This document shows, piece by piece, positions 9,006 through 41,784 of a DNA stretch of 64,000 nt. Numbering within the stretch: the stretch's first letter is position 1; every line of letters begins with the position of its first letter. This DNA comes from Gaoshiqia hydrogeniformans. Lineage in GTDB: Bacteria > Bacteroidota > Bacteroidia > Bacteroidales > Prolixibacteraceae. A program made the translations under genes and the position numbers. The notes under the pieces are model-generated. The model worked only from the letters and a program-made list of their open reading frames with translations, ran no database searches and had not been told where the DNA came from. The DNA is taken from positions 3,298,575-3,362,574 of the forward strand of contig NZ_CP186334.1 in the NCBI RefSeq assembly GCF_049347105.1. The letters run 5' to 3'.

Positions 9006-9087
9006 GCAGGGATGGAATTAATATCCGATGAGTTGATCCTCTTTGTCTTGCGTTTTTTGATACAGATGATAGGGACAGGTTTTTCCC

Positions 9088-9660
9088 TCACCTGTAAAAG
9101 TTCATCTCTTCGAGGTATTGATAGGCTTTGGGTGGAATGAAATGACGGATGTCTTTTCCGGCGGCAAGAGATTCCCGGATAAATGAGGCCGATATTTCCA
9201 TAAGCGGGGCGTTAACCAGCTGTATGTGCGGGTGAAAATCTTTTTCCTGTAAGCTACACCCGGGACGGGGATAGACCAAAATCCGGTAGTTGGCCAGAAT
9301 CTGGTCGTGGTTTTTCCATTTGTGAAAACTATCCAGGTTGTCGCCGCCCATGATCAGGAAAAACTCGTGCTTCGGGTGTTTTTCCTGTAAGTAGGCGAGC
9401 GTGTCGATGGTGTATGAAGGTTTCGGGAGCCGGAACTCGATGTCGGTCACGCGAAACCTAAAATCGTCGTGAATCGCGCGGTTTACCAATTCGAGCCGCT
9501 GGTAATCATCCAGCAGGTTCTTTTTGTTTTTATGAGGGCTGTGCGGCGAAACAACAAACCACACCTGATCAATTTCGGTGAACTCGACCATATAATTGGC
9601 AATGGCTAAATGGCCAATGTGAATGGGGTTGTATGTTCCGAAATAAAGTCCGACCTTCAT
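9088..9660 (-). CDS. nadD: nicotinate-nucleotide adenylyltransferase
   Basis: N-terminal GTYNPIHIGH (HxGH nucleotidyltransferase motif); 190 aa. Confidence 0.9.
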   Translation of the reverse strand: MKVGLYFGTYNPIHIGHLAIANYMVEFTEIDQVWFVVSPHSPHKNKKNLLDDYQRLELVNRAIHDDFRFRVTDIEFRLPKPSYTIDTLAYLQEKHPKHEFFLIMGGDNLDSFHKWKNHDQILANYRILVYPRPGCSLQEKDFHPHIQLVNAPLMEISASFIRESLAAGKDIRHFIPPKAYQYLEEMNFYR

Positions 9661-22802: not shown

Positions 22803-25800
22803 ATGGAAAAACTTTACCTGTGTTTTCGAACATTTCGATTCTTTCAAAAATTCCGTTTGGTATTTTTGATTGTGTTGGGCGGACTCCTGTTCAGTTCCGC
22901 TACAAGCTATGCGCAGTATAACCAGGCAGCTGTGGCTCTCGACCAGTTGCGTAATGGTTCTGCAACCAATCCTCTTCCCGACCCGAGCTGGGTAAATGGT
23001 AACCTGGGCGCTCAAAATTCTCATTATGCCGAGGGTATGTCGGTCGCATACCGTGCCGTAATGATTAAGATGCCTGTTGGCGTGGACGTTCAACTGACGT
23101 TGGAATATGATGCCAAACACAGTGGTAAACATGCCCTGGATTACCTGACACATTTCCAACGGATGGAAGACCACAGTATGTATGGTCACGATGCCGAAAT
23201 AGTTGACCCCACAAAGGGAACAGCCTTTGACGGGCAATTGATGAGTCCGACCAGTACCTGGGCGATTCCTGCTCCTCCGGGATATAACTCCGAGGTTGCC
23301 GGCATGCCGGCATCCAGCCATGCAGCTCTTCCCGGCAGCGAAATCTTGATGGCCATGTGGGGTGGTACCATTTCCGGTATTACGTATACCGACGAAAACG
23401 GTGTCGCCCATGCCGCAGATTTGGCGGTGGCTCAGTCAGCACAGAAAATTACCGTTAATTTTACAGCCGAAGCAGCCTCAGTCGTACTTGCCTGGGGCGG
23501 ACACATCGGCAGCCGGTTGGAGTGGGGATATTTCCCTGACGGAACCCCCAGGTCGGCCGGTGGAATCAGCGGTTCTCCCTATCATATGCGTATCATCGAC
23601 TGGAACCTGAATAATCTGGGAAACCAGGACCGGTCGCTTTCTGCTGACGCCGTTGCCATACCGCCTACCTGCGATGTTGTACCGGTTGATCAGTTTTGTG
23701 GCGGAAAAGTAATCACCTTCCAGGCCACTTCAGATGCCTCAAGTCCAACTTACGTATGGACTATTCTGAACAATACCTCGGGAGCTGCGTTTGTTGGCCC
23801 GACAAACGGGGCTGAAGTAACAGTGCTGTCTGAAAATCCGGGCGGATATACCCTGCACGTGGAAATTTCAGATGGACTTCTGTCGTCCGAATGTGAAACG
23901 GATGCATTGGTGAATGATGTGCCAATCTCGTTTACGCTTCCTGCTGATATTCATTTATGTCAGGATGAAGTTGGGGCAAGCCTGAGTGTGACCCTTGAAA
24001 ACATTGATGCAATCGTTGATTACCTTGCTGATCTTGAAATTAGTTTTTCGATAGATGCTGTTTTACAGCAAGATTATATAAAACTTCAAAATTATCTTGC
24101 CACCAACTTTCCGGCATTTAGCTGGAACGATTTTGTGGCGATTACCGGTGATGGAGACTTCCCGCTGATTGGCGATCTGATTGCTATGCTTGGCGGGTCG
24201 GGTAGCAAAACCATCTCCGTGTCGCTTCGTTTGCCAACAACCGGAATGACCACTGACGTTTGTGTTTTCACCGAGGAAACACAGGTTACCGTTAACGATA
24301 ACCCGCTATGCTCCATTGCCGGCGACGACTCTGTTTGCCCGGACGGGGAATTTACTTATACCTACGACGGAACGTCAGTGATAAGCACATATGCCTGGAG
24401 CGTATCAGGCGATGTAGCAATCATTGGAGGTGCTGATGGTCAATCAGTAACGGTAAAGGCTGACGCCGTTTGCGGAACATTTACCCTTTCATTGGTTGTT
24501 ACGGATGAAAACGGATGTGAAAGTAGCTGCGAAAAAATTGTAGCTATTCAAGATGAAGAGATACCGGTGATCTCAACCGAAGCAGTTGACGGATACGATT
24601 GGGGATGTAACCCCGATGAAATTCCTGTTCCTGAATTTACTGCAACAGATAATTGCGGTGACTTTACACCAAATGTAGCAACAGATGGTCCCGTTCAGGA
24701 TGCCGAAGGTTGCGGTATGAGTCAAACATGGACGGCTACTGTTGTTGATTATTGTGATAATGAGGCTGTTCCGGTAAGTATTACTTATTACTGGAAAGTC
24801 GACCTGGAAGCCCCGGTTATCACGGCCGCCAACGAAGATTCCGACTTAGGTTGTAACCCGACTGCAGAAGAAATCGAAGCAGCGCTTGGCGGCGCAACAG
24901 CTGCCGACAACTGCGATGCAGAAGTTACGGTTGAATATACCGACGGCGATGTGATGGGCGATGACTGCCTGAAGAGCCAGACCCGCACGTTCACCGCTGT
25001 TGACGAATGCGGCAACCAGGCCGAAGCCGTCACGGTTACGGTAAGCTGGAAAGTTGACCTGGAAGCCCCGGTGATCACAGCTGCGAACGAAGATTCCGAC
25101 TTAGGCTGTAACCCGACTGCAGAAGAAATCGAAGCAGCGCTTGGCGGCGCAACAGCTGCCGACAACTGCGATGCAGAAGTTACGGTTGAATATACCGACG
25201 GCGATGTGATGGGCGATGACTGCCTGAAGAGCCAGACCCGCACGTTCACCGCTGTTGACGAATGCGGCAACCAGGCCGAAGCCGTCACGGTTACGGTAAG
25301 CTGGAAAGTTGACCTGGAAGCCCCGGTGATCACAGCTGCGAACGAAGATTCCGACTTAGGCTGTAACCCGACTGCAGAAGAAATCGAAGCAGCGCTTGGC
25401 GGCGCAACAGCTGCCGACAACTGCGATGCAGAAGTTACGGTTGAATATACCGACGGCGATGTGATGGGCGATGACTGCCTGAAGAGCCAGACCCGCACGT
25501 TCACCGCTGTTGACGAATGCGGCAACCAGGCCGAAGCCGTCACGGTTACGGTAAGCTGGAAAGTCGATCTGGAAGCCCCGGTCATCACAGCTGCGAACGA
25601 AGATTCCGACTTAGGCTGTAACCCGACTGCAGAAGAAATCGAAGCAGCGCTTGGCGGCGCAACAGCTGCCGACAACTGCGATGCAGAAGTTACGGTTGAA
25701 TATACCGACGGCGATGTGATGGGCGATGACTGCCTGAAGAGCCAGACCCGCACCTTCACGGCTGTTGACGAATGCGGCAACCAGGCCGAAGCCGTCACCG

Positions 25801-28800
25801 TTACGGTAAGCTGGAAAGTTGATCTGGAAGCCCCGGTGATCACAGCTGCGAACGAAGATTCCGACTTAGGCTGTAACCCGACTGCGGAAGAAATCGAAGC
25901 AGCGCTTGGCGGCGCAACAGCTGCCGACAACTGCGATGCAGAAGTTACGGTTGAATATACCGACGGCGATGTAACAGGCGATGACTGCCTGAAGAGCCAG
26001 ACCCGCACCTTCACGGCTGTTGACGAATGCGGCAACCAGGCCGAAGCCGTCACGGTTACGGTAAGCTGGAAAGTCGATCTGGAAGCCCCGGTGATCACAG
26101 CCGCGAACGAAGATTCCGACTTAGGCTGTAACCCGACTGCGGAAGAAATCGAAGCAGCGCTTGGCGGCGCAACAGCTGCCGACAACTGCGATGCAGAAGT
26201 TACGGTTGAATATACCGACGGCGATGTAACAGGCGATGACTGCCTGAAGAGCCAGACCCGCACCTTCACGGCTGTTGACGAATGCGGCAACCAGGCCGAA
26301 GCCGTCACGGTTACGGTAAGCTGGAAAGTCGATCTGGAAGCCCCGGTGATCACAGCCGCGAACGAAGATTCCGACTTAGGCTGTAACCCGACTGCGGAAG
26401 AAATCGAAGCAGCGCTTGGCGGCGCAACAGCTGCCGACAACTGCGATGCAGAAGTTACGGTTGAATATACCGACGGCGATGTGATGGGCGATGATTGCCT
26501 GAAGAGCCAGACCCGCACCTTCACGGCTGTTGACGAATGCGGCAACCAGGCCGAAGCCGTCACCGTTACGGTAAGCTGGAAAGTCGATCTGGAAGCCCCG
26601 GTGATCACAGCCGCGAACGAAGATTCCGACTTAGGCTGTAACCCGACTGCAGAAGAAATCGAAGCAGCGCTTGGCGGCGCAACAGCTGCCGACAACTGCG
26701 ATGCAGAAGTTACGGTTGAATATACCGACGGCGATGTGATGGGCGATGATTGCCTGAAGAGCCAGACCCGCACGTTCACCGCTGTTGACGAATGCGGCAA
26801 CCAGGCCGAAGCCGTCACAGTTACGGTAAGCTGGAAAGTTGATCTGGAAGCACCGGTCATCACGGCCGCCAACGAAGATTCAGACCTGGGTTGTAACCCG
26901 ACTGCAGAAGAAATCGAAGCAGCGCTTGGCGGCGCAACAGCTGCCGACAACTGCGATGCAGAAGTTACGGTTGAATATACCGACGGCGATGTGATGGGCG
27001 ATGACTGCCTGAAGAGCCAGACCCGCACCTTCACGGCTGTTGACGAATGCGGCAACCAGGCCGAAGCCGTCACTGTTACGGTAAGCTGGAAAGTTGATCT
27101 GGAAGCACCGGTCATCACGGCCGCCAACGAAGATTCCGACTTAGGCTGTAACCCGACTGCAGAAGAAATCGAAGCAGCGCTTGGCGGCGCAACAGCTGCC
27201 GACAACTGCGATGCAGAAGTTACGGTTGAATATACCGACGGCGATGTGATGGGCGATGATTGCCTGAAGAGCCAGACCCGCACGTTCACCGCTGTTGACG
27301 AATGCGGCAACCAGGCCGAAGCCGTCACTGTTACGGTAAGCTGGAAAGTTGATCTGGAAGCCCCGGTTATCACAGCCGCGAACGAAGATTCCGACTTAGG
27401 CTGTAACCCGACTGCAGAAGAAATCGAAGCAGCGCTTGGCGGCGCAACAGCTGCCGACAACTGCGATGCAGAAGTTACGGTTGAATATACCGACGGCGAT
27501 GTAATGGGCGATGACTGCCTGAAGAGCCAGACCCGCACGTTCACCGCTGTTGACGAATGCGGCAACCAGGCCGAAGCCGTCACGGTTACGGTAAGCTGGA
27601 AAGTTGACCTGGAAGCCCCGGTGATCACAGCTGCGAACGAAGATTCAGACCTGGGTTGTAACCCGACTGCAGAAGAAATCGAAGCAGCGCTTGGCGGCGC
27701 AACAGCTGCCGACAACTGCGATGCAGAAGTTACGGTTGAATATACCGACGGCGATGTGATGGGCGATGACTGCCTGAAGAGCCAGACCCGCACCTTCACG
27801 GCTGTTGACGAATGCGGCAACCAGGCCGAAGCCGTCACGGTTACGGTAAGCTGGAAAGTTGATCTGGAAGCACCGGTCATCACAGCTGCGAACGAAGATT
27901 CAGACCTGGGTTGTAACCCGACTGCGGAAGAAATCGAAGCAGCGCTTGGCGGCGCAACAGCTGCCGACAACTGCGATGCAGAAGTTACGGTTGAATATAC
28001 CGACGGCGATGTAACAGGCGATGACTGCCTGAAGAGCCAGACCCGCACCTTCACGGCTGTTGACGAGTGCGGCAACCAGGCCGAAGCCGTCACTGTTACG
28101 GTAAGCTGGAAAGTTGATCTGGAAGCACCGGTCATCACGGCCGCCAACGAAGATTCCGACTTAGGCTGTAACCCGACTGCAGAAGAAATCGAAGCAGCGC
28201 TTGGCGGCGCAACAGCTGCCGACAACTGCGATGCAGAAGTTACGGTTGAATATACCGACGGCGATGTGATGGGCGATGATTGCCTGAAGAGCCAGACCCG
28301 CACGTTCACCGCTGTTGACGAGTGCGGCAACCAGGCCGAAGCAGTAACGGTTACGGTAAGCTGGAAAGTTGACCTGGAAGGACCTGTGATCGAATGTCCT
28401 GACGATATCTATGTTGCCGGATGCGAATTAGCGCCATTCATTGAATTGCCTATAGCAACAGACAACTGCGATGGAGCTGTGGAAGTTACCGCTTCCCGTT
28501 CAGATGGTTTGGAATTGAACGACCCGTTTGCAGAGGGTATAACCACCATCACGTTCACCGCAGTTGATGAATGTGGTAATAATTCAACTGAATGTGTGGT
28601 CAATGTAACCGTTGATCCATGTGAGCCGAACTGTGAAACTGCTTATGGTATGCTGGAAGGCGGTTCAGTTTGCTTCCTTAATGATGGATTCAATCGATGG
28701 GGCTGGACAAACTCAATTTCCGAAGAAGGGGAATATTCAATGCCTCTTTACGCCGGAGCAGCCCAATGTAATCCTGATAAGGGCGAACTGGTCGGTAGGG

Positions 28801-29429
28801 TTGAAGTCACTTATTCAGGAAGTACGCTGACGGTTCAGTACCTAACCGATCCGGGTTATTCGATGAGTGAGGTCCATTTGTACGTCGGATGTGATAAATA
28901 TCCGCTCGCGAAGAACGGAAAAGAAACCGTCGCTCCCGGACAATATACTCATAATGCAGGAAGTCTGAATAAGGTGAATAATTACACGGTTGAATTTACA
29001 AATGTGGAAGGACCTGTTTGGGTAATTGCCCACGCAGTAACCTGTGATGTAAATGGTGCCGGCATGGTCTCCGTTACGGAAATGGGGGTTGACTGTGGCG
29101 GGTTTGCATCGGAAGCAGAACAGCCTGTTGTAGAAGCCACCGAAGATTTATCCGGAAAAGATAATAAACCTGTAAAGATCAAAGCTTTCCCGACACCGTT
29201 CGACAAGAGTGTCAGATTTGAATTTGTACCAAACCAGGATGGTGAGGCACAGATTGGAATCTATAACTTACTCGGAAGTAAGGTTGGGGATGCCCTTAAC
29301 GAAATAGTTTACAAAGGAAGAACCTACTCTGTTGAATTTGACGGTTCCGGGTTACCCGCAGGCGTCTATTATTATCGATTCGTGTTAAATAACCAAACGC
29401 TTACAGGAAAAGTAATTAAAAATAAGTAA
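22803..29429 (+). CDS. giant secreted multi-repeat adhesin-like protein with a T9SS (Por) C-terminal sorting domain and 14 tandem HYR-like repeats
   Basis: 2208-aa ORF with an N-terminal signal peptide (LLFSSATSYAQ). Contains Cys-containing Ig/PKD-like modules and a central array of 85-aa repeats with HYR-type motifs (APVIT...GCNP...ATAADNCD...TFTAVDECGN). The C-terminus (...GVYYYRFVLNNQTLTGKVIKNK) matches the T9SS CTD pattern. A strong terminator follows. Confidence 0.9.
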   Translation: MEKLYLCFRTFRFFQKFRLVFLIVLGGLLFSSATSYAQYNQAAVALDQLRNGSATNPLPDPSWVNGNLGAQNSHYAEGMSVAYRAVMIKMPVGVDVQLTLEYDAKHSGKHALDYLTHFQRMEDHSMYGHDAEIVDPTKGTAFDGQLMSPTSTWAIPAPPGYNSEVAGMPASSHAALPGSEILMAMWGGTISGITYTDENGVAHAADLAVAQSAQKITVNFTAEAASVVLAWGGHIGSRLEWGYFPDGTPRSAGGISGSPYHMRIIDWNLNNLGNQDRSLSADAVAIPPTCDVVPVDQFCGGKVITFQATSDASSPTYVWTILNNTSGAAFVGPTNGAEVTVLSENPGGYTLHVEISDGLLSSECETDALVNDVPISFTLPADIHLCQDEVGASLSVTLENIDAIVDYLADLEISFSIDAVLQQDYIKLQNYLATNFPAFSWNDFVAITGDGDFPLIGDLIAMLGGSGSKTISVSLRLPTTGMTTDVCVFTEETQVTVNDNPLCSIAGDDSVCPDGEFTYTYDGTSVISTYAWSVSGDVAIIGGADGQSVTVKADAVCGTFTLSLVVTDENGCESSCEKIVAIQDEEIPVISTEAVDGYDWGCNPDEIPVPEFTATDNCGDFTPNVATDGPVQDAEGCGMSQTWTATVVDYCDNEAVPVSITYYWKVDLEAPVITAANEDSDLGCNPTAEEIEAALGGATAADNCDAEVTVEYTDGDVMGDDCLKSQTRTFTAVDECGNQAEAVTVTVSWKVDLEAPVITAANEDSDLGCNPTAEEIEAALGGATAADNCDAEVTVEYTDGDVMGDDCLKSQTRTFTAVDECGNQAEAVTVTVSWKVDLEAPVITAANEDSDLGCNPTAEEIEAALGGATAADNCDAEVTVEYTDGDVMGDDCLKSQTRTFTAVDECGNQAEAVTVTVSWKVDLEAPVITAANEDSDLGCNPTAEEIEAALGGATAADNCDAEVTVEYTDGDVMGDDCLKSQTRTFTAVDECGNQAEAVTVTVSWKVDLEAPVITAANEDSDLGCNPTAEEIEAALGGATAADNCDAEVTVEYTDGDVTGDDCLKSQTRTFTAVDECGNQAEAVTVTVSWKVDLEAPVITAANEDSDLGCNPTAEEIEAALGGATAADNCDAEVTVEYTDGDVTGDDCLKSQTRTFTAVDECGNQAEAVTVTVSWKVDLEAPVITAANEDSDLGCNPTAEEIEAALGGATAADNCDAEVTVEYTDGDVMGDDCLKSQTRTFTAVDECGNQAEAVTVTVSWKVDLEAPVITAANEDSDLGCNPTAEEIEAALGGATAADNCDAEVTVEYTDGDVMGDDCLKSQTRTFTAVDECGNQAEAVTVTVSWKVDLEAPVITAANEDSDLGCNPTAEEIEAALGGATAADNCDAEVTVEYTDGDVMGDDCLKSQTRTFTAVDECGNQAEAVTVTVSWKVDLEAPVITAANEDSDLGCNPTAEEIEAALGGATAADNCDAEVTVEYTDGDVMGDDCLKSQTRTFTAVDECGNQAEAVTVTVSWKVDLEAPVITAANEDSDLGCNPTAEEIEAALGGATAADNCDAEVTVEYTDGDVMGDDCLKSQTRTFTAVDECGNQAEAVTVTVSWKVDLEAPVITAANEDSDLGCNPTAEEIEAALGGATAADNCDAEVTVEYTDGDVMGDDCLKSQTRTFTAVDECGNQAEAVTVTVSWKVDLEAPVITAANEDSDLGCNPTAEEIEAALGGATAADNCDAEVTVEYTDGDVTGDDCLKSQTRTFTAVDECGNQAEAVTVTVSWKVDLEAPVITAANEDSDLGCNPTAEEIEAALGGATAADNCDAEVTVEYTDGDVMGDDCLKSQTRTFTAVDECGNQAEAVTVTVSWKVDLEGPVIECPDDIYVAGCELAPFIELPIATDNCDGAVEVTASRSDGLELNDPFAEGITTITFTAVDECGNNSTECVVNVTVDPCEPNCETAYGMLEGGSVCFLNDGFNRWGWTNSISEEGEYSMPLYAGAAQCNPDKGELVGRVEVTYSGSTLTVQYLTDPGYSMSEVHLYVGCDKYPLAKNGKETVAPGQYTHNAGSLNKVNNYTVEFTNVEGPVWVIAHAVTCDVNGAGMVSVTEMGVDCGGFASEAEQPVVEATEDLSGKDNKPVKIKAFPTPFDKSVRFEFVPNQDGEAQIGIYNLLGSKVGDALNEIVYKGRTYSVEFDGSGLPAGVYYYRFVLNNQTLTGKVIKNK
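24791..28360 (+). repeat. 14 tandem copies of a 255-bp (85-codon) near-identical in-frame repeat inside the giant gene
   Basis: The unit boundary CTGGAAAG recurs at 24791, 25046, 25301, and so on to 28361, exactly 255 nt apart. Copies differ at a few mostly synonymous sites plus one Met/Thr site. Copies 2 and 3 (25046..25555) are 100% identical. Confidence 0.95.
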
Positions 29430-32870: not shown

Positions 32871-33482
32871 ATGGATTTAAAAAAAGACAATACCGAGGAA
32901 AAAATACTGGATGCCGCCACAACGGTATTTGTACGCAAAGGCATGGATGGAGCCCGCATGCAGGAAATAGCCGATGAGGCAAAAATCAATAAAGCCTTAT
33001 TACATTACTATTTCAGGAGTAAAGACAAGCTGTTTGACGCTATCTTTAGCAAAATCATCAGTTTTGCTTTTCCTAAAATCGGTCAGATCTTGCAATCGGA
33101 TATCGATTTTAAATCGAAGGTAGAACAAGCTATTGACACCTACCTCGACTTGTTGCTAAAGTATCCTTATTTGCCCGGATTTATTCTGAAAGAGGTGAAC
33201 CGGGATCCTAGCGTTTTCTTCAAATTGGTGATTAAACATGGTTTTAGTCCAAAACCCATTTTTAAAATCATCTCGGAAGCGATGGACCGGGGCGAAATTA
33301 TCCGGATGAAACCGGAACACCTGGTGGTCAACGTGATTAGCTTGTGCGTATTCCCTTTTGCAGGTAAACCGGTCATCAGCTTTGTTGCTTTCGATGAGGA
33401 TAAAGAAGCCACACGGGCTTTTCTTGAAGAACGGAAAGAAGAAGTCAAACGATTTGTACTCAGGGCCATTGAACCCAGATAA
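32871..33482 (+). CDS. TetR/AcrR-family transcriptional regulator
   Basis: N-terminal TetR helix-turn-helix (ILDAATTVFVRKGMDGARMQEIADEAKINKALLHYYF); 203 aa. Confidence 0.85.
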   Translation: MDLKKDNTEEKILDAATTVFVRKGMDGARMQEIADEAKINKALLHYYFRSKDKLFDAIFSKIISFAFPKIGQILQSDIDFKSKVEQAIDTYLDLLLKYPYLPGFILKEVNRDPSVFFKLVIKHGFSPKPIFKIISEAMDRGEIIRMKPEHLVVNVISLCVFPFAGKPVISFVAFDEDKEATRAFLEERKEEVKRFVLRAIEPR

Positions 33483-33493: not shown

Positions 33494-34750
33494 ATGATCA
33501 GAAAACAATTATTTCTGTGGTTTTTGTTGCCGGTACAATTGCTGGCACAGGAACCGGTGAGTTTAAGCGATTGCCGGGAATGGGCGCGGGAGCAACATCC
33601 TTTTTTGAAACAGCAGGAGCTTTACCGGCAGATGACTGAACTGAAACTGGCAAACAACGAAACCGGTTATCTGCCGCAAATCGGCCTGAATGCCCAGGCC
33701 ACCTACCAGTCTGATGTAACGCGCGTCGGGATTTCACTCCCCGGTGTCAGTATTCCGGAAGTCTCAAAAGATCAATACAAAATGTACCTGGATGTGCGTC
33801 AGCATATTTGGGATGGCGGACTGACCAAAGCCAATGAGCGCCTCGAAACTGCTCAGGAGGCAACCAACCTGCAGGGAGTCGAGGTGGAATTGTACCAGGT
33901 GAACGAACAGGTGAATTATTTGTTTTTTACCAGTTTCGTTCTTCAGCAAAACCTGGAGGTTCTGGCTAAAAAGAAGGAAACCCTGGAGGCCGGCAAACGA
34001 CAGGCCGAATCGGGCGTCAAACATGGCATGGTGCTGGCTTCCGATCTGGATCTGCTGCTTGCCGAACTGATCAAGGTGAAGCAGCAACAAATTGAATTGC
34101 AGTCGAACCGGGAAACTGTTCATTCAGCGCTGGCCATCCTGACGGGGAAACAGCCAGCTGATCTTCAAAATCTGGCAATTGAACCAGCTGAGCCGGTTTT
34201 TGACCGTCCGGTAAGCCGTCCCGAGTTAAATCTGTTTGATAAGCAGACGGACTTGCTGGATGCGGCATCTGATTTACTTCAGAAAAAACGTAATCCCCGT
34301 TTGTTTGGTTTTGGACAGGCCGGTTACGGACGCCCCGGCTTAAATATGCTGAATGATGCGTTTGATACTTATTACCTGGTTGGCCTGGGATTGAACTGGA
34401 CTGTATTTGACTGGAAAAATACCAAACGCGACAAGGAGATGATCCGCCTGCAGCAGCAAATAGTTCAAACTCAACAACAACAATTTGAACGCCAGGTGAA
34501 TATTGCGCTCGACAGCGAATCGCGCAAGATCAGGCAATTAAAAGATATACTCGAAAGTGACCGGGAGCTGATTGAACTGCAGGAGCGGATTACGAAAAGT
34601 TCCGCCTCAAAGCTTGAAAACGGAGCCATAACCATGTCAGATTATCTTCAGGACCTCAATGCGGAAGCGGCCGCCCGGATCACTTTCGAAACACATAAGG
34701 TGCAGTTGGAAGCTGCTAAAATTAATTATCAAAACATACAAGGTAACTAA
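33494..34750 (+). CDS. TolC-family outer membrane efflux protein
   Basis: Signal peptide and a two-repeat coiled-coil/beta-barrel OEP architecture; 418 aa. Confidence 0.8.
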   Translation: MIRKQLFLWFLLPVQLLAQEPVSLSDCREWAREQHPFLKQQELYRQMTELKLANNETGYLPQIGLNAQATYQSDVTRVGISLPGVSIPEVSKDQYKMYLDVRQHIWDGGLTKANERLETAQEATNLQGVEVELYQVNEQVNYLFFTSFVLQQNLEVLAKKKETLEAGKRQAESGVKHGMVLASDLDLLLAELIKVKQQQIELQSNRETVHSALAILTGKQPADLQNLAIEPAEPVFDRPVSRPELNLFDKQTDLLDAASDLLQKKRNPRLFGFGQAGYGRPGLNMLNDAFDTYYLVGLGLNWTVFDWKNTKRDKEMIRLQQQIVQTQQQQFERQVNIALDSESRKIRQLKDILESDRELIELQERITKSSASKLENGAITMSDYLQDLNAEAAARITFETHKVQLEAAKINYQNIQGN

Positions 34751-34752
34751 CA

Positions 34753-35667
34753 TTGAAAAACAGAAAAATGAAACTTCAATATGTGGTTGTACTGGCATTG
34801 GTCGCGCTGATGTCGTGCAAAGGGAAAGATGACAAATCGGACGCTTACGGCAATTTTGAAACCGATGAGACGATTGTTTCTGCCGAACAGGCGGGAAAGC
34901 TGATCAGCTTTGGGCTTCGCCTGGGTAGCCAGGTTGAAAAAGATGAACTTCTGGCGGTAGTGGATACCAGTCAGTTGAGCCTTCAGTTGAAACAGGCGGA
35001 AGCGCAACTGCAGGCCGTGGCGATAAAAAAAATCAGTGTCCGGGCGCAGTCGGAGGTTTTGCAGGAGCAAATCAGCAACCTGAAAATCCAGCAGGACCGT
35101 GTTCATAAACTATTTGCCGATCAGGCGGCAACCCGGCAGCAGGTAGACGATGTAGACGGGCAGATGCGCGTACTGGAAAAACAGTTGGAAAGTCTGAATA
35201 CACAATTTAAAACCATCGACAGTGAGATGGTTGTGCTGTCGGCCCAGTGGGATATTCTAAAAAATCAACTGGAAAAATGTCTGGTTACCAGTCCGATGAG
35301 CGGGGTGGTACTTGAAAAATATGTGGAGCCGGGCGAGTTGGTTTCGCCCGGCAAGGCGATTGTCAAACTTGGAAACCTGACCGAACTGGATCTGCGCGTT
35401 TATGTCAGCGGGGCCCAGTTGCCCCATCTTAAACTTGGGCAAGAGGTAAACGTGTTGATTGATAGTGATAAACGTGATAATCAGGTGATGACTGGTGTTG
35501 TGAACTGGATTTCACCGGAAGCTGAGTTTACACCCAAGATCATTCAAACCAAAGAAGAAAGGATAAAATTGGTGTATGCGGTAAAAGTGAAGGTGAAAAA
35601 TGACGGGCGCCTGAAAATCGGCATGCCGGGCGAAATCCGGTTCGTGAGCAGTGGTCTGTCGCAGTGA
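34753..35667 (+). CDS. HlyD-family periplasmic adaptor (membrane fusion protein)
   Basis: Lipoprotein-like N-terminus, a long coiled-coil and a C-terminal beta-barrel region; follows TolC by 3 bp. Confidence 0.8.
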   Translation: MKNRKMKLQYVVVLALVALMSCKGKDDKSDAYGNFETDETIVSAEQAGKLISFGLRLGSQVEKDELLAVVDTSQLSLQLKQAEAQLQAVAIKKISVRAQSEVLQEQISNLKIQQDRVHKLFADQAATRQQVDDVDGQMRVLEKQLESLNTQFKTIDSEMVVLSAQWDILKNQLEKCLVTSPMSGVVLEKYVEPGELVSPGKAIVKLGNLTELDLRVYVSGAQLPHLKLGQEVNVLIDSDKRDNQVMTGVVNWISPEAEFTPKIIQTKEERIKLVYAVKVKVKNDGRLKIGMPGEIRFVSSGLSQ

Positions 35668-35748
35668 GCGGTTGCAGATGCTGAATGTTAACTGCTGGTA
35701 GGCAGCAGCCCTTTAATCTGAAATCTGGAATTTGAAATTTGGAACCTA

Positions 35749-36660
35749 ATGATCGAAGTCAAAAACATATCAAAGTCCTACAACAAAACCACGGCTTTGA
35801 AAGATATTTCTTTCGAAGTGAAACAAGGCGAATTGTTTGGGTTGATCGGGCCGGATGGCGCCGGAAAAACCACACTGATGCGGATCCTGATGACGCTCCT
35901 TCTTCCGGATCAGGGCAAAGCCGAAATGGCTGGTCTCGACGTCATAACCGACTACAAAAAAATCCGGAGCCTGGTGGGTTATATGCCCGGCCGTTTTTCG
36001 CTTTACCAGGATTTGACGGTGGAGGAAAACCTGGAGTTTTTTGCCACCGTGTTTGGTACCACCATTGCCGAAAATTACGAGCTGATCAGGGATATTTACG
36101 TTCAGATTGAGCCGTTTAAAGCGCGTTTGGCCGGTAAACTTTCAGGAGGAATGAAACAGAAACTGGCTCTTTCGTGCGCACTGATCCATAAGCCCGAAAT
36201 TTTGATACTCGACGAACCGACTACCGGCGTGGATGCCGTTTCGCGCATGGAATTCTGGGAAATGCTGAAAAAGCTCCGCAAACAGGGAATTACCGTTTTG
36301 GTTTCGACACCTTACATGGACGAAGCCAGTCTGTGCGACCGGGTGGCGTTGATGCAAAAAGGACAAATACTGAGTATCGACAGCCCGGCCCGGATCGTGG
36401 AAACTTACAAACGAAAGCTGCTTGCCGCCCGATCAGCGGATATGCCGCGACTGATCAACGATTTGCGGGCCTGGGAAAAGGTGGGCACGGCATACGCTTT
36501 TGGACAGTTTATGCACGTTACGCCCAAAGATGACAGCCTGGAAGCCGTGGAACTGGAGCGCTACCTGATGGGACGACAACATGAAAAACTGCAGGTGTAT
36601 GAAATTTCGCCAGGCATCGAAGATGTTTTTATGGCGCTGATGAGGGAGAGTGGTGGTTAA
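35749..36660 (+). CDS. ABC transporter ATP-binding protein
   Basis: Walker A GPDGAGKTT, signature LSGGMKQKL, Walker B ILILDEPT. Confidence 0.9.
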   Translation: MIEVKNISKSYNKTTALKDISFEVKQGELFGLIGPDGAGKTTLMRILMTLLLPDQGKAEMAGLDVITDYKKIRSLVGYMPGRFSLYQDLTVEENLEFFATVFGTTIAENYELIRDIYVQIEPFKARLAGKLSGGMKQKLALSCALIHKPEILILDEPTTGVDAVSRMEFWEMLKKLRKQGITVLVSTPYMDEASLCDRVALMQKGQILSIDSPARIVETYKRKLLAARSADMPRLINDLRAWEKVGTAYAFGQFMHVTPKDDSLEAVELERYLMGRQHEKLQVYEISPGIEDVFMALMRESGG

Positions 36661-36708
36661 CTCTGTGGTCTCCGTGGTTAAAACTGGAAAATATTAAATA
36701 GAACAAAA

Positions 36709-37455
36709 ATGGATCAACAAACCCCGGTAATAAAGGTCAAAGATCTTGTCAAAAAGTTTGGCGCTTTCGTGGCAAACGATCACCTGAACTTCGAGGTTCA
36801 TAAAGGCGAAATTTTTGGTTTCCTGGGAGCGAATGGCGCCGGAAAAACCACCGCCATGCGTATTCTTTGTGGGCTGTCAAGTCCAACTTCAGGAGAAATA
36901 ATGGTTGGAGGTTTTGATGTTTATAAACAAACAGAGCAAATTAAGCGGAACATCGGCTATATGAGTCAAAAATTTTCGTTGTACGAAGACATGACTATTG
37001 CCGAAAATATCCGCTTCTATGCCGGTATTTATGGTATTTCAACAAAACAGCGAAAAGAAAAGGAAGAAATTCTGTTGAAAAAATTGCAACTCGAAACCGA
37101 ACGCAATAAACTGATTGCCTCACTGCCTTTGGGCTGGAAACAAAAGCTGGCTTTCTCGGTAGCGCTCTTTCACGATCCGCAGATTGTTTTTCTGGACGAA
37201 CCGACCGGAGGCGTCGACCCGATCACCCGCCGGCAGTTTTGGGATTTCATTTACGAAGCGGCTGCCGAAGGGAAAACCATCTTTGTAACCACCCACTACA
37301 TGGACGAAGCCGAATACTGCGATCGCGTGTCGATCATGGTGGATGGCCGCATCGCCGCTCTCGACACACCCGAAAACCTGAAAAAGCAGTTTGCTTCAAA
37401 CGATATGAACGGGGTATTTCTGAAGCTGGCGAGAGGAGTCGTGAGTCGTGAGTAA
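36709..37455 (+). CDS. ABC transporter ATP-binding protein
   Basis: Walker A GANGAGKTT and Walker B VFLDEPTGGVD. Confidence 0.9.
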   Translation: MDQQTPVIKVKDLVKKFGAFVANDHLNFEVHKGEIFGFLGANGAGKTTAMRILCGLSSPTSGEIMVGGFDVYKQTEQIKRNIGYMSQKFSLYEDMTIAENIRFYAGIYGISTKQRKEKEEILLKKLQLETERNKLIASLPLGWKQKLAFSVALFHDPQIVFLDEPTGGVDPITRRQFWDFIYEAAAEGKTIFVTTHYMDEAEYCDRVSIMVDGRIAALDTPENLKKQFASNDMNGVFLKLARGVVSRE

Positions 37456-37719
37456 CGAGTCGTGAGTATTTTCATTGAATGAACGTTTTAACCAAAAACA
37501 AATAATCATGAATAATTTTAAAGAATTAAAAGTTTGGCAGAAGGCAATAGAACTTGTCACGGACATGTACAAAAACACACAATCTCAATCAAACAGATTT
37601 TGATTTGCTGACTTCAGATTTGGATGAAATACAACGAATGCTGACAGGGCGGCAAAAAACTTTAAAGTAAGAAGCAAATGTTGCAGGTACAATCTCGCAA
37701 CTCGCAACTCGCTACTCAC
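37436..37719. repeat. intergenic element with a GTGAGT-rich arm (37436-37468) and a complementary ACTCGC/ACTCAC-rich arm (37693-37719) flanking an inserted gene remnant
   Basis: The (GAGTCGTGAGT) units are complementary to the (ACTCGCAACTCGC...ACTCAC) units, allowing G.U pairs. A compact version of the same element occurs at 38839..38881. Confidence 0.4.
37508..37669 (+). pseudogene. decayed four-helix-bundle protein gene (rRNA intervening-sequence-type, S23p-like) with an internal deletion/frameshift
   Basis: Translation MNNFKELKVWQKAIELVTDMYKNT... matches the conserved N-terminus of four-helix-bundle proteins, then terminates after 31 codons. A C-terminal-like remnant ...LDEIQRMLTGRQKTLK lies in another frame, ending at 37669. 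Confidence 0.55.
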
Positions 37720-37737
37720 AACCCGTAACTCAAGACA

Positions 37738-38844
37738 ATGAAACGTTTCTTCGGATTTGTAAAAAAAGAATTTTATCACATCTTCCGCGATGTGCGGACC
37801 ATGATTATCCTGTTTGGGATACCCGTTGCCCAGCTTTTGCTGTTTGGAACGGTGATTACCAACGAGATCAAAGATGTGCACATCGCGGTCTGCGACCAGT
37901 CGAAAGATGAAGTCACCCGCGAAATTACCAACAAGATTTTGTCGTCAGGTTATTTTTTTATGGATCAGTACCTCGAAAGTACAGCGGATATTGAGGCCAT
38001 CTTTAAAAAAGGAAAAGTAAAAGAGGTGCTGGTTTTTGAACCGGACTTCGCCCGAAACCTCGAACGCGACGGCAAGGCAGCCGTGCAGGTGATCGCCGAT
38101 GCGTCTGATCCCAACCTGGGGAAAATGCTGGCCGCTTATACCACGGGCATTATCAACGATTATATGCTGAAAGAGATGGGCGAATTGCACATGCCCATGC
38201 AGATTAAACCGGAGGTACGCATGTTTTACAACGAAGAGCTGAAGTCGGTTTATCTGTTTGTGCCCGGAATTATGGCCATGATCCTGATGCTGATCTCCGC
38301 CATGATGACCTCCATATCCATCACCCGGGAAAAAGAGCTGGGTACCATGGAGATTCTGCTGGTGTCGCCGTTGCGCCCGGTACAGATCATCCTTGGCAAA
38401 GTGGCGCCCTACCTGGGTTTATCTGTTATCAATGCCTTGATTATTTTGTTGATTGGCCACTTCGTATTTGGCGTCCCCATTCACGGGAGTTGGTTTTTGT
38501 TGATGGCGGAGAGTATCCTGTTTATCCTGATGGCGCTGTGTTTGGGTATTCTGATCTCCTCGGTTGCCAAAAACCAAATGGTGGCCATGTTTATCTCCAT
38601 GATTGCGCTGATGTTGCCAACGATCCTGCTGTCGGGATTTATCTTCCCGATCGAAAACATGCCTTATCCATTGCAGCTTTTGTCGAATATCATGCCGCCG
38701 CGCTGGTTCATTGTCATCCTGAAAAACATCATGCTGAAAGGCGCCGGCTTCCTGTACGTGTGGAAAGAAAGCCTGATCCTGCTGGGCATGGCAGCGGTTT
38801 TTACCGCGATTGCCGTGAGAAAATTTAAAACGAGACTTGAGTAG
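37738..38844 (+). CDS. ABC-2 family transporter permease
   Basis: N-terminal TM helix, a large periplasmic loop, and then 5 TM helices (ABC2_membrane_3 type); 368 aa. Confidence 0.85.
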   Translation: MKRFFGFVKKEFYHIFRDVRTMIILFGIPVAQLLLFGTVITNEIKDVHIAVCDQSKDEVTREITNKILSSGYFFMDQYLESTADIEAIFKKGKVKEVLVFEPDFARNLERDGKAAVQVIADASDPNLGKMLAAYTTGIINDYMLKEMGELHMPMQIKPEVRMFYNEELKSVYLFVPGIMAMILMLISAMMTSISITREKELGTMEILLVSPLRPVQIILGKVAPYLGLSVINALIILLIGHFVFGVPIHGSWFLLMAESILFILMALCLGILISSVAKNQMVAMFISMIALMLPTILLSGFIFPIENMPYPLQLLSNIMPPRWFIVILKNIMLKGAGFLYVWKESLILLGMAAVFTAIAVRKFKTRLE

Positions 38845-38881
38845 TGAGTGGTGAGTAGTTGAACTCGAAACTCGCGATTCG
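38839..38881. repeat. intergenic hairpin element, (GTGAGT)n arm plus (ACTCGN)n arm
   Basis: GAGTAGTGAGTGGTGAGTAG - TTG - AACTCGAAACTCGCGATTCG. The two arms pair, with G.U wobbles, directly between the two permease genes. The left arm also encodes the permease stop region. Confidence 0.4.
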
Positions 38882-38901
38882 TAACCCGAAACCTTAAAAA
38901 G

Positions 38902-40020
38902 ATGAAAACTATCCGATACATTCTTCAAAAAGAATTCATCCAGGTATTCCGAAACAAAACCATGTTACCCATGATCTTTGTGTTGCCGCTGGTGCAAATG
39001 CTGATCCTGGTGTTTGCAGCAACCTACGATTTGAAAAACGTGGATATTTATGTGGTTGACCAGGATCTGTCGGCAACTTCGCGCGAACTGACAGGCAAAT
39101 TTGAAGGTTCGCCGTTTTTTCGCTTGCACGACGCGTCGTTTGATCTGCAGGATGCCGAGAACAGTTTCAAAAAAGAAGAGGCGGATTTTGTGTTGGTGAT
39201 TCCGCAGGGTTTTGAACGTTCGTTGGTCCGTGAAGAAGAGGCTAGAGTGCAGCTGCTGATCAACGCGATTGATGGTAGTAAAGCCTCACTGATTTATTCC
39301 TACACCCTGGGGATCCTTTCGGGATTCAACAAGTCGGTGATTGCCGAATGGAAAGGTCTGCCCGAATTTAACCCACCCAGGCGAATCGAGGTGAAAGACA
39401 GCTATTGGTACAATCCCGAACTGGATTACAAGTGGTACATGGCGCCGGGCATCCTGGCTATTTTGGTAACGATTATCGGCATGTTTTTGTCGGGCATGAA
39501 CCTGGTGCGCGAAAAGGAAATCGGCACCATTGAGCAACTCAACGTGACTCCCATTAAAAAGTACCAGTTTATTTTGGGTAAGCTGGCGCCGTTCCTGGTC
39601 ATTGCTTTGTTCGACCTGGCTTTTGGGCTGATTATTGCCCGCGTGGTTTTCGACCTTCCCATCATGGGCAGCCTGCCTTTGCTGTTTGGTTTTGCTGCCC
39701 TTTACCTGGTTGGCGTACTTGGTCTGGGACTGTTTATTTCGACGGTTACCGAAACCCAGCAGCAAGTAATGTTTGTAACCTTCTTCTTTATGATGATTTT
39801 CATCCTGATGGGCGGCATATTCACCCCGGTCGAAAGTATGCCTCATTGGGCGCAATGGCTCGACCGTATCAACCCAATCTACTATTTTATGCGGATTATG
39901 CGCATGGTTGTGCTGAAAGGCTCCGGTTTTTCCGATTTATTGGATGAATTTGTTTCACTGACCGTGATTGGTGTCTCGTTCTTAAGTCTGGCCATCTGGC
40001 GCTACCGGAAAACGAGTTGA
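38902..40020 (+). CDS. ABC-2 family transporter permease
   Basis: Paralog of the preceding permease with the same topology; 372 aa. Confidence 0.85.
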   Translation: MKTIRYILQKEFIQVFRNKTMLPMIFVLPLVQMLILVFAATYDLKNVDIYVVDQDLSATSRELTGKFEGSPFFRLHDASFDLQDAENSFKKEEADFVLVIPQGFERSLVREEEARVQLLINAIDGSKASLIYSYTLGILSGFNKSVIAEWKGLPEFNPPRRIEVKDSYWYNPELDYKWYMAPGILAILVTIIGMFLSGMNLVREKEIGTIEQLNVTPIKKYQFILGKLAPFLVIALFDLAFGLIIARVVFDLPIMGSLPLLFGFAALYLVGVLGLGLFISTVTETQQQVMFVTFFFMMIFILMGGIFTPVESMPHWAQWLDRINPIYYFMRIMRMVVLKGSGFSDLLDEFVSLTVIGVSFLSLAIWRYRKTS

Positions 40021-40086
40021 CCGAAAGGTAAAAGCACCTTATTTTGGTGGTTTTCGTATATATTCCTGTTAAGAAGAAAGGAGGGA

Positions 40087-40452
40087 ATGATGATACCGGT
40101 TATTGAGGGAACGCAATTCGGGATGATTACGATCTCGGGCAGACAATATAATTATGATGTGCTGATCCGCCTGAACGGGCAGATTGAAAAACGGAAAAAG
40201 AAATTATCGAAGGAGAAATACGGAACCTCGCATAAAATTTCGTTGGAAGAAGCAGTTACTATTTATGAGCCAGGAGCAAAACAACTCATTATTGGTACTG
40301 GTCAGATTGGCTATGTAAAGCTTTCAGAAGAGGCAGCTTCGTTTTTTAAGCAAAAGAATTGTCAGGTACGACTGGTTGATACCCTGCAGGCGGTTCACGT
40401 ATGGAATGCCGCTGAAGGAAAAGTAATCGGAATGTTCCATGTTACCTGCTGA
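40087..40452 (+). CDS. small conserved hypothetical protein (possibly Mth938-like fold)
   Basis: 121-aa ORF with protein-like composition and no signal peptide. The family guess is weak. Confidence 0.45.
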   Translation: MMIPVIEGTQFGMITISGRQYNYDVLIRLNGQIEKRKKKLSKEKYGTSHKISLEEAVTIYEPGAKQLIIGTGQIGYVKLSEEAASFFKQKNCQVRLVDTLQAVHVWNAAEGKVIGMFHVTC

Positions 40453-40470: not shown

Positions 40471-41784
40471 CACTAGTGTCCCATTAAAATCGGGACGTAT
40501 TAATAATTAAACAAATTTGGCTCATTAAGGCTAAAACGTTCTTTGTCATTTTGAAATTTAGTTCTATCAAATAGGTCTCGAAGATTAGTTTTATCTGTTA
40601 AAGATATGCTCAATCTGCAAGACCTCATATGTGCTTCTATCAAGTTGCATGTCCTTTTGGACGATTGCCACCAAGCAGTAAGTGCACATGGCAGCGTAGA
40701 TTTGAATCCGAACAGCATTTTCAGTAGTACCCCAAAACTTTTTGATTTTCAGATGTTGCTTTAACCATTTGAAGAACAGCTCGACTTGCCAGCGGTTCTT
40801 GTAAAGTTCAGCAACCTGCAATGCAGAAATGTGCATTGCATTGGTCAAGAATACAAGCTCACGCTTTTGTTCTTCATCCCAATATCTGACCAATCTAAGA
40901 TGCTCTGGATAGTATTGCTTAGGATAAAACCCAGTCAATTCAATTGTTACATCTGAAAGCACGTTCTTGGGCAATCTTCGTTTCCATTTGATCATCTTGC
41001 ATTGTAGATTCTTTTTGGCTCTTAAAACATAGAAAGCTCCTATTTGATGAATCTTATACAACATCTTGAAGTGATTATATGCACGGTCAAATATGTAATA
41101 TGAGCCTGATTCATAAGGGATCTCTTTCATGGCAGTAGAGTCGTGAACAGATGCTTCAGTGATATGGAAAAATGCAGGTATCTGTGTCTCCACATCGTAT
41201 AATGCATGTACTTTGATTCCACCTTTTTTCTTACGGAACTTCGCCCACCAGAATACCGAAAGGCATAAGTCAATTGTCGTTGAATCAAAAGCATAGACAT
41301 TGCCTTCAAGCTTGAAGATGTCAGCAACGCGTTTCTGCCTGGCTTCGTTTACCAGATAGTAAGCATACTCTTCAAAGATGTGATAGTCCCTGTCTTGATT
41401 GGCTCTGGCCAGTGATGATTTTGAAATGTTCTTGCCCAATCCCAAATGATAAGATTTGGAGTGATGAGCATCAAGTGCGACGATCAAATCTCTAAGACTT
41501 TCACGATTTGACAATTGCCCGAACATCAGAGATAGCAATTGATTCCAACAAGTGAAATGCTTCACGTATTTGTCGCCATTGTATTTGGCAACAATACGAT
41601 TGAATTTGCTTCGATTCAGAAACGAGACCAGTTGAGCGAAAACGTATTTGTCTTGATACATATGCAATCAGAATAATCTGATGCAAAACTAAAAATTCAA
41701 GTCCGTTCGCTCGAAAAATGGATACAACTAACTAAATTTCAAATACATCAAAGAACTTTTTTAGTTTTTAATGGGACGGTAATG
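40471..41784 (-). mobile_element. IS4-family insertion sequence (1314 bp), apparently intact, flanked by 9-bp direct repeats
   Basis: A single DDE transposase ORF. Terminal inverted repeats begin CA...GTCCCATTAAAA (left 40471-40490; reverse complement at the right end 41765-41784). There is an additional subterminal inverted repeat of about 40 bp (40531-40568 versus 41721-41765). An identical 9-bp ACTTAAAAC sequence lies at 40462-40470 and 41785-41793. Confidence 0.75.
40591..41667 (-). CDS. IS4-family DDE transposase
   Basis: 358-aa ORF with IS4-type DDE-domain composition (…YAFDSTTIDL…, …DRAYNHF…) lying between the inverted repeats. Confidence 0.85.
   Translation of the reverse strand: MHMYQDKYVFAQLVSFLNRSKFNRIVAKYNGDKYVKHFTCWNQLLSLMFGQLSNRESLRDLIVALDAHHSKSYHLGLGKNISKSSLARANQDRDYHIFEEYAYYLVNEARQKRVADIFKLEGNVYAFDSTTIDLCLSVFWWAKFRKKKGGIKVHALYDVETQIPAFFHITEASVHDSTAMKEIPYESGSYYIFDRAYNHFKMLYKIHQIGAFYVLRAKKNLQCKMIKWKRRLPKNVLSDVTIELTGFYPKQYYPEHLRLVRYWDEEQKRELVFLTNAMHISALQVAELYKNRWQVELFFKWLKQHLKIKKFWGTTENAVRIQIYAAMCTYCLVAIVQKDMQLDRSTYEVLQIEHIFNR

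Follow-up and report, generated by a model that had tools for sequence, protein, structure and literature searches.

The 64,000-nucleotide (nt) stretch of DNA analysed here, called the window below, belongs to Gaoshiqia hydrogeniformans (Bacteroidota; Bacteroidales; Prolixibacteraceae) and covers positions 3,298,575 to 3,362,574 of contig NZ_CP186334.1 (assembly GCF_049347105.1). Its open reading frame (ORF) list and profile searches reveal a seven-gene operon on the + strand, otherwise an ordinary ATP-binding cassette (ABC) efflux operon (Table 1). The 282-nt spacer between the genes for the second ATPase and the first permease contains the remnant of a small gene for a four-helix-bundle protein, which is placed between two tandem heptamer arrays complementary to each other, referred to as the 5′ and 3′ arms. 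From the evidence described below, this element (37436-37737) is probably a dead small-gene cassette lacking a promoter of its own, whose arms pair as RNA in the fashion of the intervening sequences (IVSs) of 23S rRNA.

The gene remnant consists of two parts in different frames. The ATG at 37508 starts MNNFKELKVWQKAIELVTDMYKNTQ..., whose match covers the initial 22-26 positions of the PF05635, TIGR02436, and NF008911 profiles (NF008911 positions 1-26, E 6e-6; PF05635 1-22, E 1e-3), but this frame then goes out of register and reaches a stop codon at 37601-37603, leaving an ORF of 31 aa. The second part, ...FDLLTSDLDEIQRMLTGRQKTLK with its stop codon at 37668-37670, matches the final ~30 positions of TIGR02436, PF05635, and NF008911. 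DNA alignment of the window with four orthologous loci (L002, L026, L007, and L006) shows a single internal deletion of ~191 nt at 37582/37583, which has removed profile positions ~27 to 74 and is the reason for the two reading frames. When joined, the two parts score 26.4 bits with PF05635 (cut-off 33.8) and 21.7 bits with TIGR02436 (cut-off 24), both below the curated cut-offs, and the uninterrupted ORF of ~110-130 aa spanning four helices that typifies the family is missing. In the closest relative, L002, the identical junction is occupied by a complete gene of 117 aa. Its product scores above every cut-off, with 150 bits for PF05635 (cut-off 33.8), 141.6 for TIGR02436, and 148 for NF008911 (cut-off 137), and matches PDB 2gsc, a five-chain four-helix-bundle protein from Xanthomonas, with E 3e-28; this orthologue, not the 54-aa joined remnant, served as the query for the protein search. 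Because the alignment with intact orthologues shows one internal deletion, the window copy belongs to an orthologous cassette and is a pseudogene, not a member protein, of the four-helix-bundle family (PF05635/TIGR02436, "23S rRNA IVS protein", Avd-like). An earlier note on this DNA, made from the letters alone, had proposed a truncated gene of this kind, and the matches at both ends together with the intact L002 orthologue bear it out. Upstream of the remnant, the leader includes a TTAACC (37488-37493) that is also present in leaders of other cassettes of this kind (L002, L009, and L010). Two hidden Markov models (HMMs) detected no other four-helix-bundle gene, and no gene of the GxxExxY family, elsewhere in the window.

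The 5′ arm is built of GAGTNNN heptamers and covers the final six codons and the stop codon of ATPase 2, and the 3′ arm is built of complementary NNNACTC heptamers and stops 6 nt short of the ATG of permease 1. Each thus has at least three head-to-tail copies of a 7-nt unit in an intergenic position near a start codon, as do the tandem heptamer repeats of the STRR (short tandemly repeated repetitive) or TAACTGA type, and the two together provide what terminal complementary sequences provide in an IVS, namely a stem of ~20-30 bp around an insert. They form a 32-nt inverted repeat with 75% Watson-Crick matches. The earlier note had read the left arm as a threefold 11-mer; there is indeed a repeat arm at this place, but it is really a heptamer array, and the 11-mer GAGTCGTGAGT appears three times only through overlapping copies. 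The pairing of the arms predicted in the same note is found in the minimum free energy (MFE) structure of the region. The arms alone, joined by a short linker, fold with -38.5 kcal/mol (z -6.6), a value reached by none of 200 shuffles, and at least 26 inter-arm bp with about -31.7 to -38.5 kcal/mol are predicted for the window. An interrupted stem of ~26-34 bp can therefore still form, with 226 nt looped out and with the stop codon of the ATPase gene and the start codon of the permease gene at its base.

Table 1. Positions of the cassette remnant, the efflux operon genes, and further repeats in the window.
Feature	Positions	Strand	Basis or remark
5′ arm, tandem heptamer array GAGTCGT x4.6	37436-37467	+	Tandem Repeats Finder (TRF) period 7, inverted repeat, folds
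A/T-rich leader between 5′ arm and cassette ATG	37468-37507	+	sequence
N-terminal remnant of four-helix-bundle gene, MNNFKELKVWQKAIELVTDMYKNTQ	37508-37582	+	profile matches, DNA alignment
C-terminal remnant in other frame, ...NQTDFDLLTSDLDEIQRMLTGRQKTLK, then stop	37583-37670	+	profile matches, DNA alignment
3′ arm, tandem heptamer array CTCGCAA/ACTCNNN x5.4, complementary to 5′ arm	37694-37731	+	TRF period 7, folds
TetR regulator	32871-33482	+	
Outer-membrane efflux protein	33494-34750	+	
HlyD-type adaptor	34753-35667	+	
ABC ATPase 1	35749-36660	+	
ABC ATPase 2	36709-37455	+	stop TAA 37453-37455
ABC-2 permease 1	37738-38844	+	ATG at 37738
ABC-2 permease 2	38902-40020	+	
Solo heptamer array AATCTGA/AATTTGA	35715-35744	+	TRF; fold not significant
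GTGGTTAACTCTGTGGTCTCCGTGGTTAAAA, GGTTAA-type, ATPase 1 / ATPase 2 junction	36652-36683	+	sequence, motif census
ORF-less hairpin of the same repeat type, permease 1 / permease 2 junction	38832-38892	+	TRF, inverted repeat, fold

For comparison, 80 orthologous operons were collected via the permease protein, mostly from Prolixibacteraceae and other Bacteroidota; the closest permeases are those of a metagenome-assembled genome (MAG) of Prolixibacteraceae (87%) and of Sunxiuqinia elliptica (86%, L003). An exact-sequence lookup of the permease returned only the same contig and gave no polymorphic site. Mapping of five operon genes per locus left gaps of 450-600 nt at many junctions, and these gaps hold co-oriented ORFs of 112-132 aa starting with MNNFKELKVWQKA... 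or MDFKELIVYQKAF.... Two HMMs, the first of them built from such junction ORFs, identified 29 four-helix-bundle genes and four GxxExxY genes (TIGR04256/PF13366) in the 80 loci. All 33 intact genes are intercistronic and have a tandem array upstream and a complementary array downstream. Some of these cassettes come from cultured strains: Tangfeifania diversioriginum DSM 27063 (L014) has three in this operon, and Draconibacterium aestuarii and Sunxiuqinia are further candidates. Arm complementarity was scored by local alignment of the upstream flank with the reverse complement of the downstream flank, and exceeds the 95th percentile of 150 control genes in 23 of the 33. RNAduplex energies of 110-nt flanks were dropped because of their noise, values of -25 to -35 kcal/mol being obtained with shuffles as well.

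The arms of these cassettes share a period and not a sequence. Among arrays of three or more copies, 74 have period 7, compared with 22 for period 6 and 26 for period 8, and a period-7 array is found at 68 of 294 operon junctions versus 38 of 2000 random 120-nt segments. Within each heptamer a 4-nt core is conserved and a 3-nt spacer is free. The core varies from cassette to cassette (GAGT, CAGT, TAGT, AAGC, GAGC, AAGT, GGGT, GTAC, and others; arms of the CAGT/ACTG type are the commonest here), yet the two arms of one cassette match each other, and in the permease 1 / permease 2 element of L010 the core even shifts along the array and the shift is mirrored in the other arm. Predicted stems have a median of 23-27 inter-arm bp with -29 to -34 kcal/mol, and intact cassettes measure ~450-500 nt. 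The protein subfamily tracks the arms: genes for MDFKEL... proteins, found at three different junctions, have arms of the CAGT/ACTG type, and those for MNNFKEL... proteins have GAGT or TAGT arms. The GxxExxY genes have arms of another kind, AACCACAGAG / CTCTGTGGTTAA, with a period of ~10-11.

Some junctions of the operon set are more complex. At the ATPase 1 / ATPase 2 junction of L026 (7640-8790, 1154 nt), a 170-aa ORF is located between a CAGT-type 5′ arm and the four-helix-bundle gene, and the 3′ side has a CAGT-type arm followed by a GGTTAA-type arm. This arrangement suggests nested or successive insertions, as do similar mixtures in L017 and L004. A different intercistronic class is seen at the HlyD / ATPase 1 junction and others of L015, L019, L026, L010, and L007, where G+C-rich inverted repeats, GCCCCTCCCAAACCCTCCCC ... 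GGGGAGGGGTTGGGGGAGGC, bracket ~60-120 nt of A-rich sequence. In L028, L039, and L058 the permease match spans ~1530-1590 nt instead of 1104 nt, which suggests that weak matches of the paralogous second permease have been joined to it and not that the gene carries an insertion.

An independent sample was obtained by a metagenome scan with an alignment of the subfamily. Arms above the control threshold flank 53 of 72 genes, and period-7 arrays were found in 48 of 63; some arms extend over 80 nt, as do those of L116, (GTTCACA/GTTCGTA)n, and L161, (CCGGATA)n. The operon and metagenome sets together thus show the same architecture in >80 independent cassettes. The same build occurs in Cytophaga and, between the MarR gene and fadB, in Flavobacterium. 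It also occurs in MAGs labelled as other phyla: with (CCAGATG)n / (CATCTGG)n arms in one labelled Actinomycetota, with (AATCAGA)n arms in one labelled Acidobacteriota, and with GTCAGTT / ACTGACA arms between an ABC permease gene and an ABC ATPase gene in one labelled Alphaproteobacteria. In L113 (2001-2360) the flanking arms are (GGGACTA)n and (CCCTAAT)n, the latter being (TTAGGGA)n on the other strand; the likeness of this last heptamer to eukaryotic telomere repeats is probably a coincidence.

The cassettes fit tightly into their transcripts. For elements of the heptamer type, the upstream gene has its stop codon -12 to +20 nt from where the 5′ arm begins, in 8 of 13 cases within the arm itself, and a median of 6 nt separates the end of the 3′ arm from the next ATG. 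In the metagenome set, 32 upstream neighbours have the same orientation as the cassette gene and 3 the opposite one. As read from sequence, no promoter scan having been made, the cassettes appear to have no recognisable promoter of their own and to depend on the transcript of the host.

How the cassettes spread and disappear can be seen from copies at different junctions. Their proteins group mostly by junction, and the insertions are therefore old and vertically inherited. The exceptions are L020, in which two adjacent junctions carry copies with 96% identical proteins, and a pair in L009 with 85%. DNA homology between the L020 copies extends from within the 5′ arm to within the 3′ arm, the outer flanks being unrelated, and the L009 pair shows the same pattern; because the homology runs from arm to arm, arms and gene move or convert together. 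Decay can be followed in stages across the junctions, from full cassettes of ~480 nt through the window remnant (282 nt) and those of L005 (215 nt) and L013 (175 nt, permease 1 / permease 2) to bare hairpins of 60-100 nt and then to single arrays. The L005 remnant (9000-9180), at the ATPase 1 / ATPase 2 junction and between fragments of CAGT-type arms, is a second, independent decayed four-helix-bundle cassette, in which ATGGATTTCAAGGGATTATTGGATTATAAAAAGGCGTTC (MDFKGLLDYKKAF) is still readable before a shortened tail. Arm complementarity with a score of at least 26 is kept by 20 junction elements of <350 nt that are decayed or without an ORF. At the junction corresponding to that of the window element, S. 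elliptica has just a 60-nt spacer with arm fragments, and occupancy of the junctions over the 80 operons is patchy.

Debris of the cassette type is present at all four of these junctions in the window operon, as a solo array, a GGTTAA-type arm, the gene remnant, and a bare hairpin. At the permease 1 / permease 2 junction, where the earlier note had seen the same two arms back to back, GAGTNNN units (38832-38859) are followed by ACTCNNN-like units (38862-38892), which fold into a hairpin with -17.9 kcal/mol (z -2.1 to -2.5). The solo array ends 4 nt before the start of ATPase 1 and resembles a 3′ arm without a convincing partner. The GGTTAA-type sequence provides the stop codon of ATPase 1 and resembles the 3′ arm (…CTCTGTGGTTAA) that flanks GxxExxY genes in relatives, and by this likeness is a remnant of such an arm. 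Rfam gave nothing relevant, and no rRNA match, across 35500-40200, an interval that includes both the gene remnant element and the hairpin.

Two other features of the window stand outside the operon. An IS4-type transposase gene (DDE_Tnp_1 + DUF4372, 358 aa, TTG start) on the - strand (40591-41667) is located just 3′ of the operon and a DUF498 gene (40087-40452), and is not associated with the cassettes. A 255-bp unit repeated 14.1 times with 97% identity (24791-28391) lies within a 2208-aa ORF (22803-29429, +), whose ~14 near-identical repeats of 85 aa make it probably a very large surface protein.

The closest known counterpart of the cassettes is the IVS of Coxiella burnetii 23S rRNA. It is 428 nt long, contains a sense S23p ORF, and has a 28-bp terminal stem, in the middle of which RNase III cuts; its 5′ stem region has GACAGAT heptamers in tandem, variable in copy number among strains and with the RNase III site at the first repeat, and its ORF undergoes reductive evolution (PMC4990558). 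Excision by RNase III without religation is established for rRNA IVSs (PMC4990558). The cassettes share with the 23S IVSs that carry an S23p ORF (Coxiella burnetii, Leptospira, Xanthomonas, and Brucella) the PF05635 family, a similar size (428 nt versus ~450-500 nt when intact), a sense ORF without its own promoter, a terminal stem of ~25-30 bp, copy-variable heptamers on the 5′ side, and an ORF prone to decay. They differ in that the host transcript is a protein-coding operon, in that the site is between a stop and a start codon and not in helix 9, 25, or 45 of 23S rRNA, in that long heptamer arrays form both arms, and in that RNase III cleavage is known for rRNA IVSs only. The window element is flanked by ABC ATPase and ABC-2 permease genes; as the defining feature of location fails, it is IVS-like and yet not an IVS. 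Moreover, Rfam detected no rRNA near 20 metagenome cassettes without neighbouring ORFs, and because none was found at the operon either, the link to rRNA IVSs rests on the literature and not on the loci seen here. Even so, the comparison with rRNA IVSs drawn in the earlier note turns out stronger than was claimed there, owing to the heptamers at the RNase III site in Coxiella. Its further suggestion that such genes travel as stem-loop cassettes agrees with the arm-to-arm duplications, and its expectation that intact homologues would be found between arms agrees with both sets of loci, so that its cassette idea as a whole is supported by the comparative evidence.

These observations combine into the following picture. 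A cassette consists of a 5′ heptamer array, a short A-rich leader, a four-helix-bundle gene of ~117 aa, and a reverse-complement 3′ array. It reads in the direction of the operon and fills the space from the stop codon of the gene before it to the start codon of the gene after it. It is copied from arm to arm, and internal deletion turns it into remnants such as that of the window and then into bare hairpins such as 38832-38892. In the operon transcript the arms would pair, so that the insert is looped out and the two flanking cistrons meet at the foot of the stem. The stem may thus act as that of a 23S rRNA IVS does, holding the flanks together, and is a likely substrate of RNase III; a stem of this type may be what makes the insertion tolerable to the host. 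Since gene family, size, orientation, stem, heptamers, and decay are all common to the Coxiella IVS, cleavage of the arms by RNase III is plausibly their most likely biochemical fate. Any effect of the window remnant on mRNA processing would be a leftover and not a selected function.

Several observations weigh against this interpretation. First, although the 321-nt region as a whole pairs its arms in the MFE structure, it only marginally beats shuffles (z -1.7). Second, G.U pairs are not enriched among arm mismatches, which comprise 56 G.U versus 57 A.C and 217 transversions in the operon set, and 66 G.U versus 78 A.C and 198 transversions in the metagenome set. An excess of G.U would be expected if pairing were kept in RNA; the observed proportions, with about two thirds transversions, are those of unconstrained positions. 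Third, complementarity is mainly confined to the 4-nt core of each heptamer, without a signature specific to RNA. Fourth, the bare hairpin of L002 orthologous to 38832-38892 folds with only -9.8 kcal/mol (z 0.2), no better than its shuffles. Fifth, the arms are chiral: the 5′ arm has more G than C and the 3′ arm more C than G in 51 metagenome cassettes versus 2 (of 53, p 3e-13), and the 5′ arm has more G than C in 37 of 45 elements of the operon set. The asymmetry is genuine, since both strands of an inverted repeat read alike, and pairing alone does not predict it. Sixth, no target-site duplication is evident at the borders of arm and gene, where no systematic search for one was made. A block-permutation test of register-specific complementarity was positive and is not relied on, being biased by the choice of alignment and by true period-14 arrays. 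The RNA-processing role that the earlier note proposed for the operon transcript stays plausible by homology, with one sequence-based test, that of G.U pairs, negative.

Stop codons are also unevenly distributed between the arms, with 1.9-2.3 frames stopped in 5′ arms and 1.1-1.2 in 3′ arms. The idea that stops in all three frames are the cause of both the period of 7 and the chirality was set aside, as only 19 of the 53 5′ arms comply; stop-codon content accounts for the chirality no more than partly. Stop codons on the 5′ side, together with a G-poor 3′ arm next to the start codon, hint that the upstream translation may be insulated and that the downstream gene may obtain a favourable leader.

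The absence of a G.U excess is what would be expected if complementarity were set in DNA and then decayed, and the arms could act in DNA only, as the ends of a mobile element (terminal inverted repeats or an attC-like site folded as a single strand), with pairing in mRNA incidental. The duplication unit that runs from arm to arm and the occurrence of the same cassette type at different junctions would also be accounted for in this way. Integron cassettes have promoter-less small ORFs co-oriented with transcription, and their attC inverted repeat is kept in structure and not in sequence, as are the arms described here. On the other hand, the arms bracket the ORF on both sides whereas attC is on one side, the cassettes are scattered over operons rather than arrayed, and no integrase was found in the operon or its neighbours, the part of the window scanned for one. 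There is no associated recombinase or transposase either, the sole transposase of the window being outside the operon, and the arm sequences seem too diverse for one sequence-specific enzyme; for the same reason, that they differ from cassette to cassette, the element does not behave as a miniature inverted-repeat transposable element. Strict sense orientation and the exact fit from stop to start codon point to constraints at the transcript level, and the homologous rRNA IVS is cleaved as RNA (PMC4990558). An exclusive role in DNA is thus rather unlikely, but a DNA-level role of the arms, in recombination or as single-strand hairpins, is a serious rival and is compatible with a role in RNA.

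The position of the 3′ arrays just before start codons allows another explanation, in which the arrays are single-stranded binding sites for a protein (a translation regulator or the four-helix-bundle protein itself) that controls the next gene, complementarity being secondary. Repeats just upstream of start codons have been described before (MacGregor 2015, PMC4679880), and a binding protein would fit the conserved 4-nt core with its free spacer as well as the arrays without a partner, such as that at 35715-35744 in the window and (TAACTGA)n before the permease gene in L067. It would also fit the correlation of protein subfamily with core type, but inheritance of the cassette as a whole from a common ancestor would account for this equally well. 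Binding sites do not explain why dozens of different cores each have their own complement across the gene, nor why changes of the core along one array are mirrored by the other arm, as in L010, and this explanation is considered unlikely.

That the arms outlast the ORF, as in the window remnant, in L005 and L013, and in the 20 elements of <350 nt, would be understandable if the host had selected the stem-loop to segment the operon mRNA and to set the stabilities of ATPase and permease messages, with the gene as a passenger. The record of decay speaks otherwise. Because the L002 hairpin is unstable and S. elliptica, with a permease 86% identical, has only arm fragments, the remnants look like decaying debris and not like elements kept by the host; the instability of the L002 hairpin fits neutral decay at least as well as retained function. 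Junctions are patchily occupied, and arms decay to single arrays and then to nothing. A regulatory stem-loop selected by the host is accordingly quite improbable. As for a chance mixture of low-complexity repeats and a spurious short ORF, which could be argued from the marginal fold of the whole region and the sub-threshold HMM scores of the remnant, it is already refuted, and has practically no likelihood, given the intact orthologue at the same junction, the fold of the arms alone, and the recurrence of the architecture.

The interpretation as a decayed, IVS-like cassette thus retained, its relation to other repeats and genes can be considered. TAACTGA repeats just upstream of start codons were reported from Beggiatoaceae, Cyanobacteria, and five Bacteroidetes, and a translational role was proposed for them; no transfer mechanism was found, no gene was linked to them, and only one inverted set was noted (MacGregor 2015, PMC4679880). 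A preprint on Nostoc left the role of the heptamers open. The arrays of the cassettes resemble these repeats in their period of 7, intergenic position often a few nt before a start codon, copy number changing in 7-nt steps, and patchy spread, and differ in that they are paired and complementary around a gene or its remains, whereas the STRR/TAACTGA repeats are direct repeats without partner or gene. Since (TAACTGA)n occurs in L067 and CAGT/ACTG arms are the commonest in the loci compared here, orphan arrays of this type could be footprints of cassettes. Other transcribed intergenic repeats, namely the Correia/NEMIS elements of Neisseria and the enterobacterial repetitive intergenic consensus (ERIC), form hairpins in mRNA; Correia elements are cut by RNase III, and ERIC alters the stability of flanking mRNA. 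These have a conserved sequence and are non-coding, in contrast to cassettes, whose arms are free in sequence and internally periodic and which carry a gene when complete. The protein is also related in fold to Avd of diversity-generating retroelements, a pentameric four-helix bundle like 2gsc; however, the L002 orthologue scores below threshold with both bAvd (PF22296, 26 bits, cut-off 40) and the retroelement Avd family NF033474 (32.7 bits, cut-off 80), and there is no reverse transcriptase, template, or variable repeat nearby.

No paper that joins four-helix-bundle or GxxExxY genes to flanking heptamer arrays was found, in a search that most subscription journals and family descriptions lay outside, so that an earlier notice is possible. 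To judge from the loci compared, the cassettes appear to form a class that spans phyla, varies the theme of the rRNA intervening sequence, and is so far undescribed. It is tentatively suggested, as an idea somewhat short of probable, that four-helix-bundle (S23p/Avd-like) and GxxExxY nuclease-like genes are the cargo of widespread selfish "intervening sequences of transcripts", which are promoter-less, lie between complementary tandem-repeat arms (of a separate type for GxxExxY), colonise any highly transcribed spacer (in rRNA helices as well as at operon junctions), leave the transcript as RNA by looping out or excision at the arm stem, and decay to orphan heptamer arrays such as STRR and TAACTGA.

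For the window itself the consequence is modest, namely one pseudogene and three further repeat remnants. More generally, three loose ends may belong to one phenomenon: the origin and mobility of 23S IVSs, the thousands of functionally uncharacterised genes annotated as "four helix bundle protein" and "GxxExxY protein" that are scattered in bacterial genomes, and the heptamer repeats that Cyanobacteria, Beggiatoaceae, and Bacteroidota have by their start codons, for which no explanation is generally accepted and whose origin has been unexplained since 1990. If the arms are indeed processed as RNA, many operons in these phyla would be cut or restructured at their junctions by parasitic inserts, with consequences for the annotation of operons, for models of transcripts, and for the ratios in which subunits are expressed.

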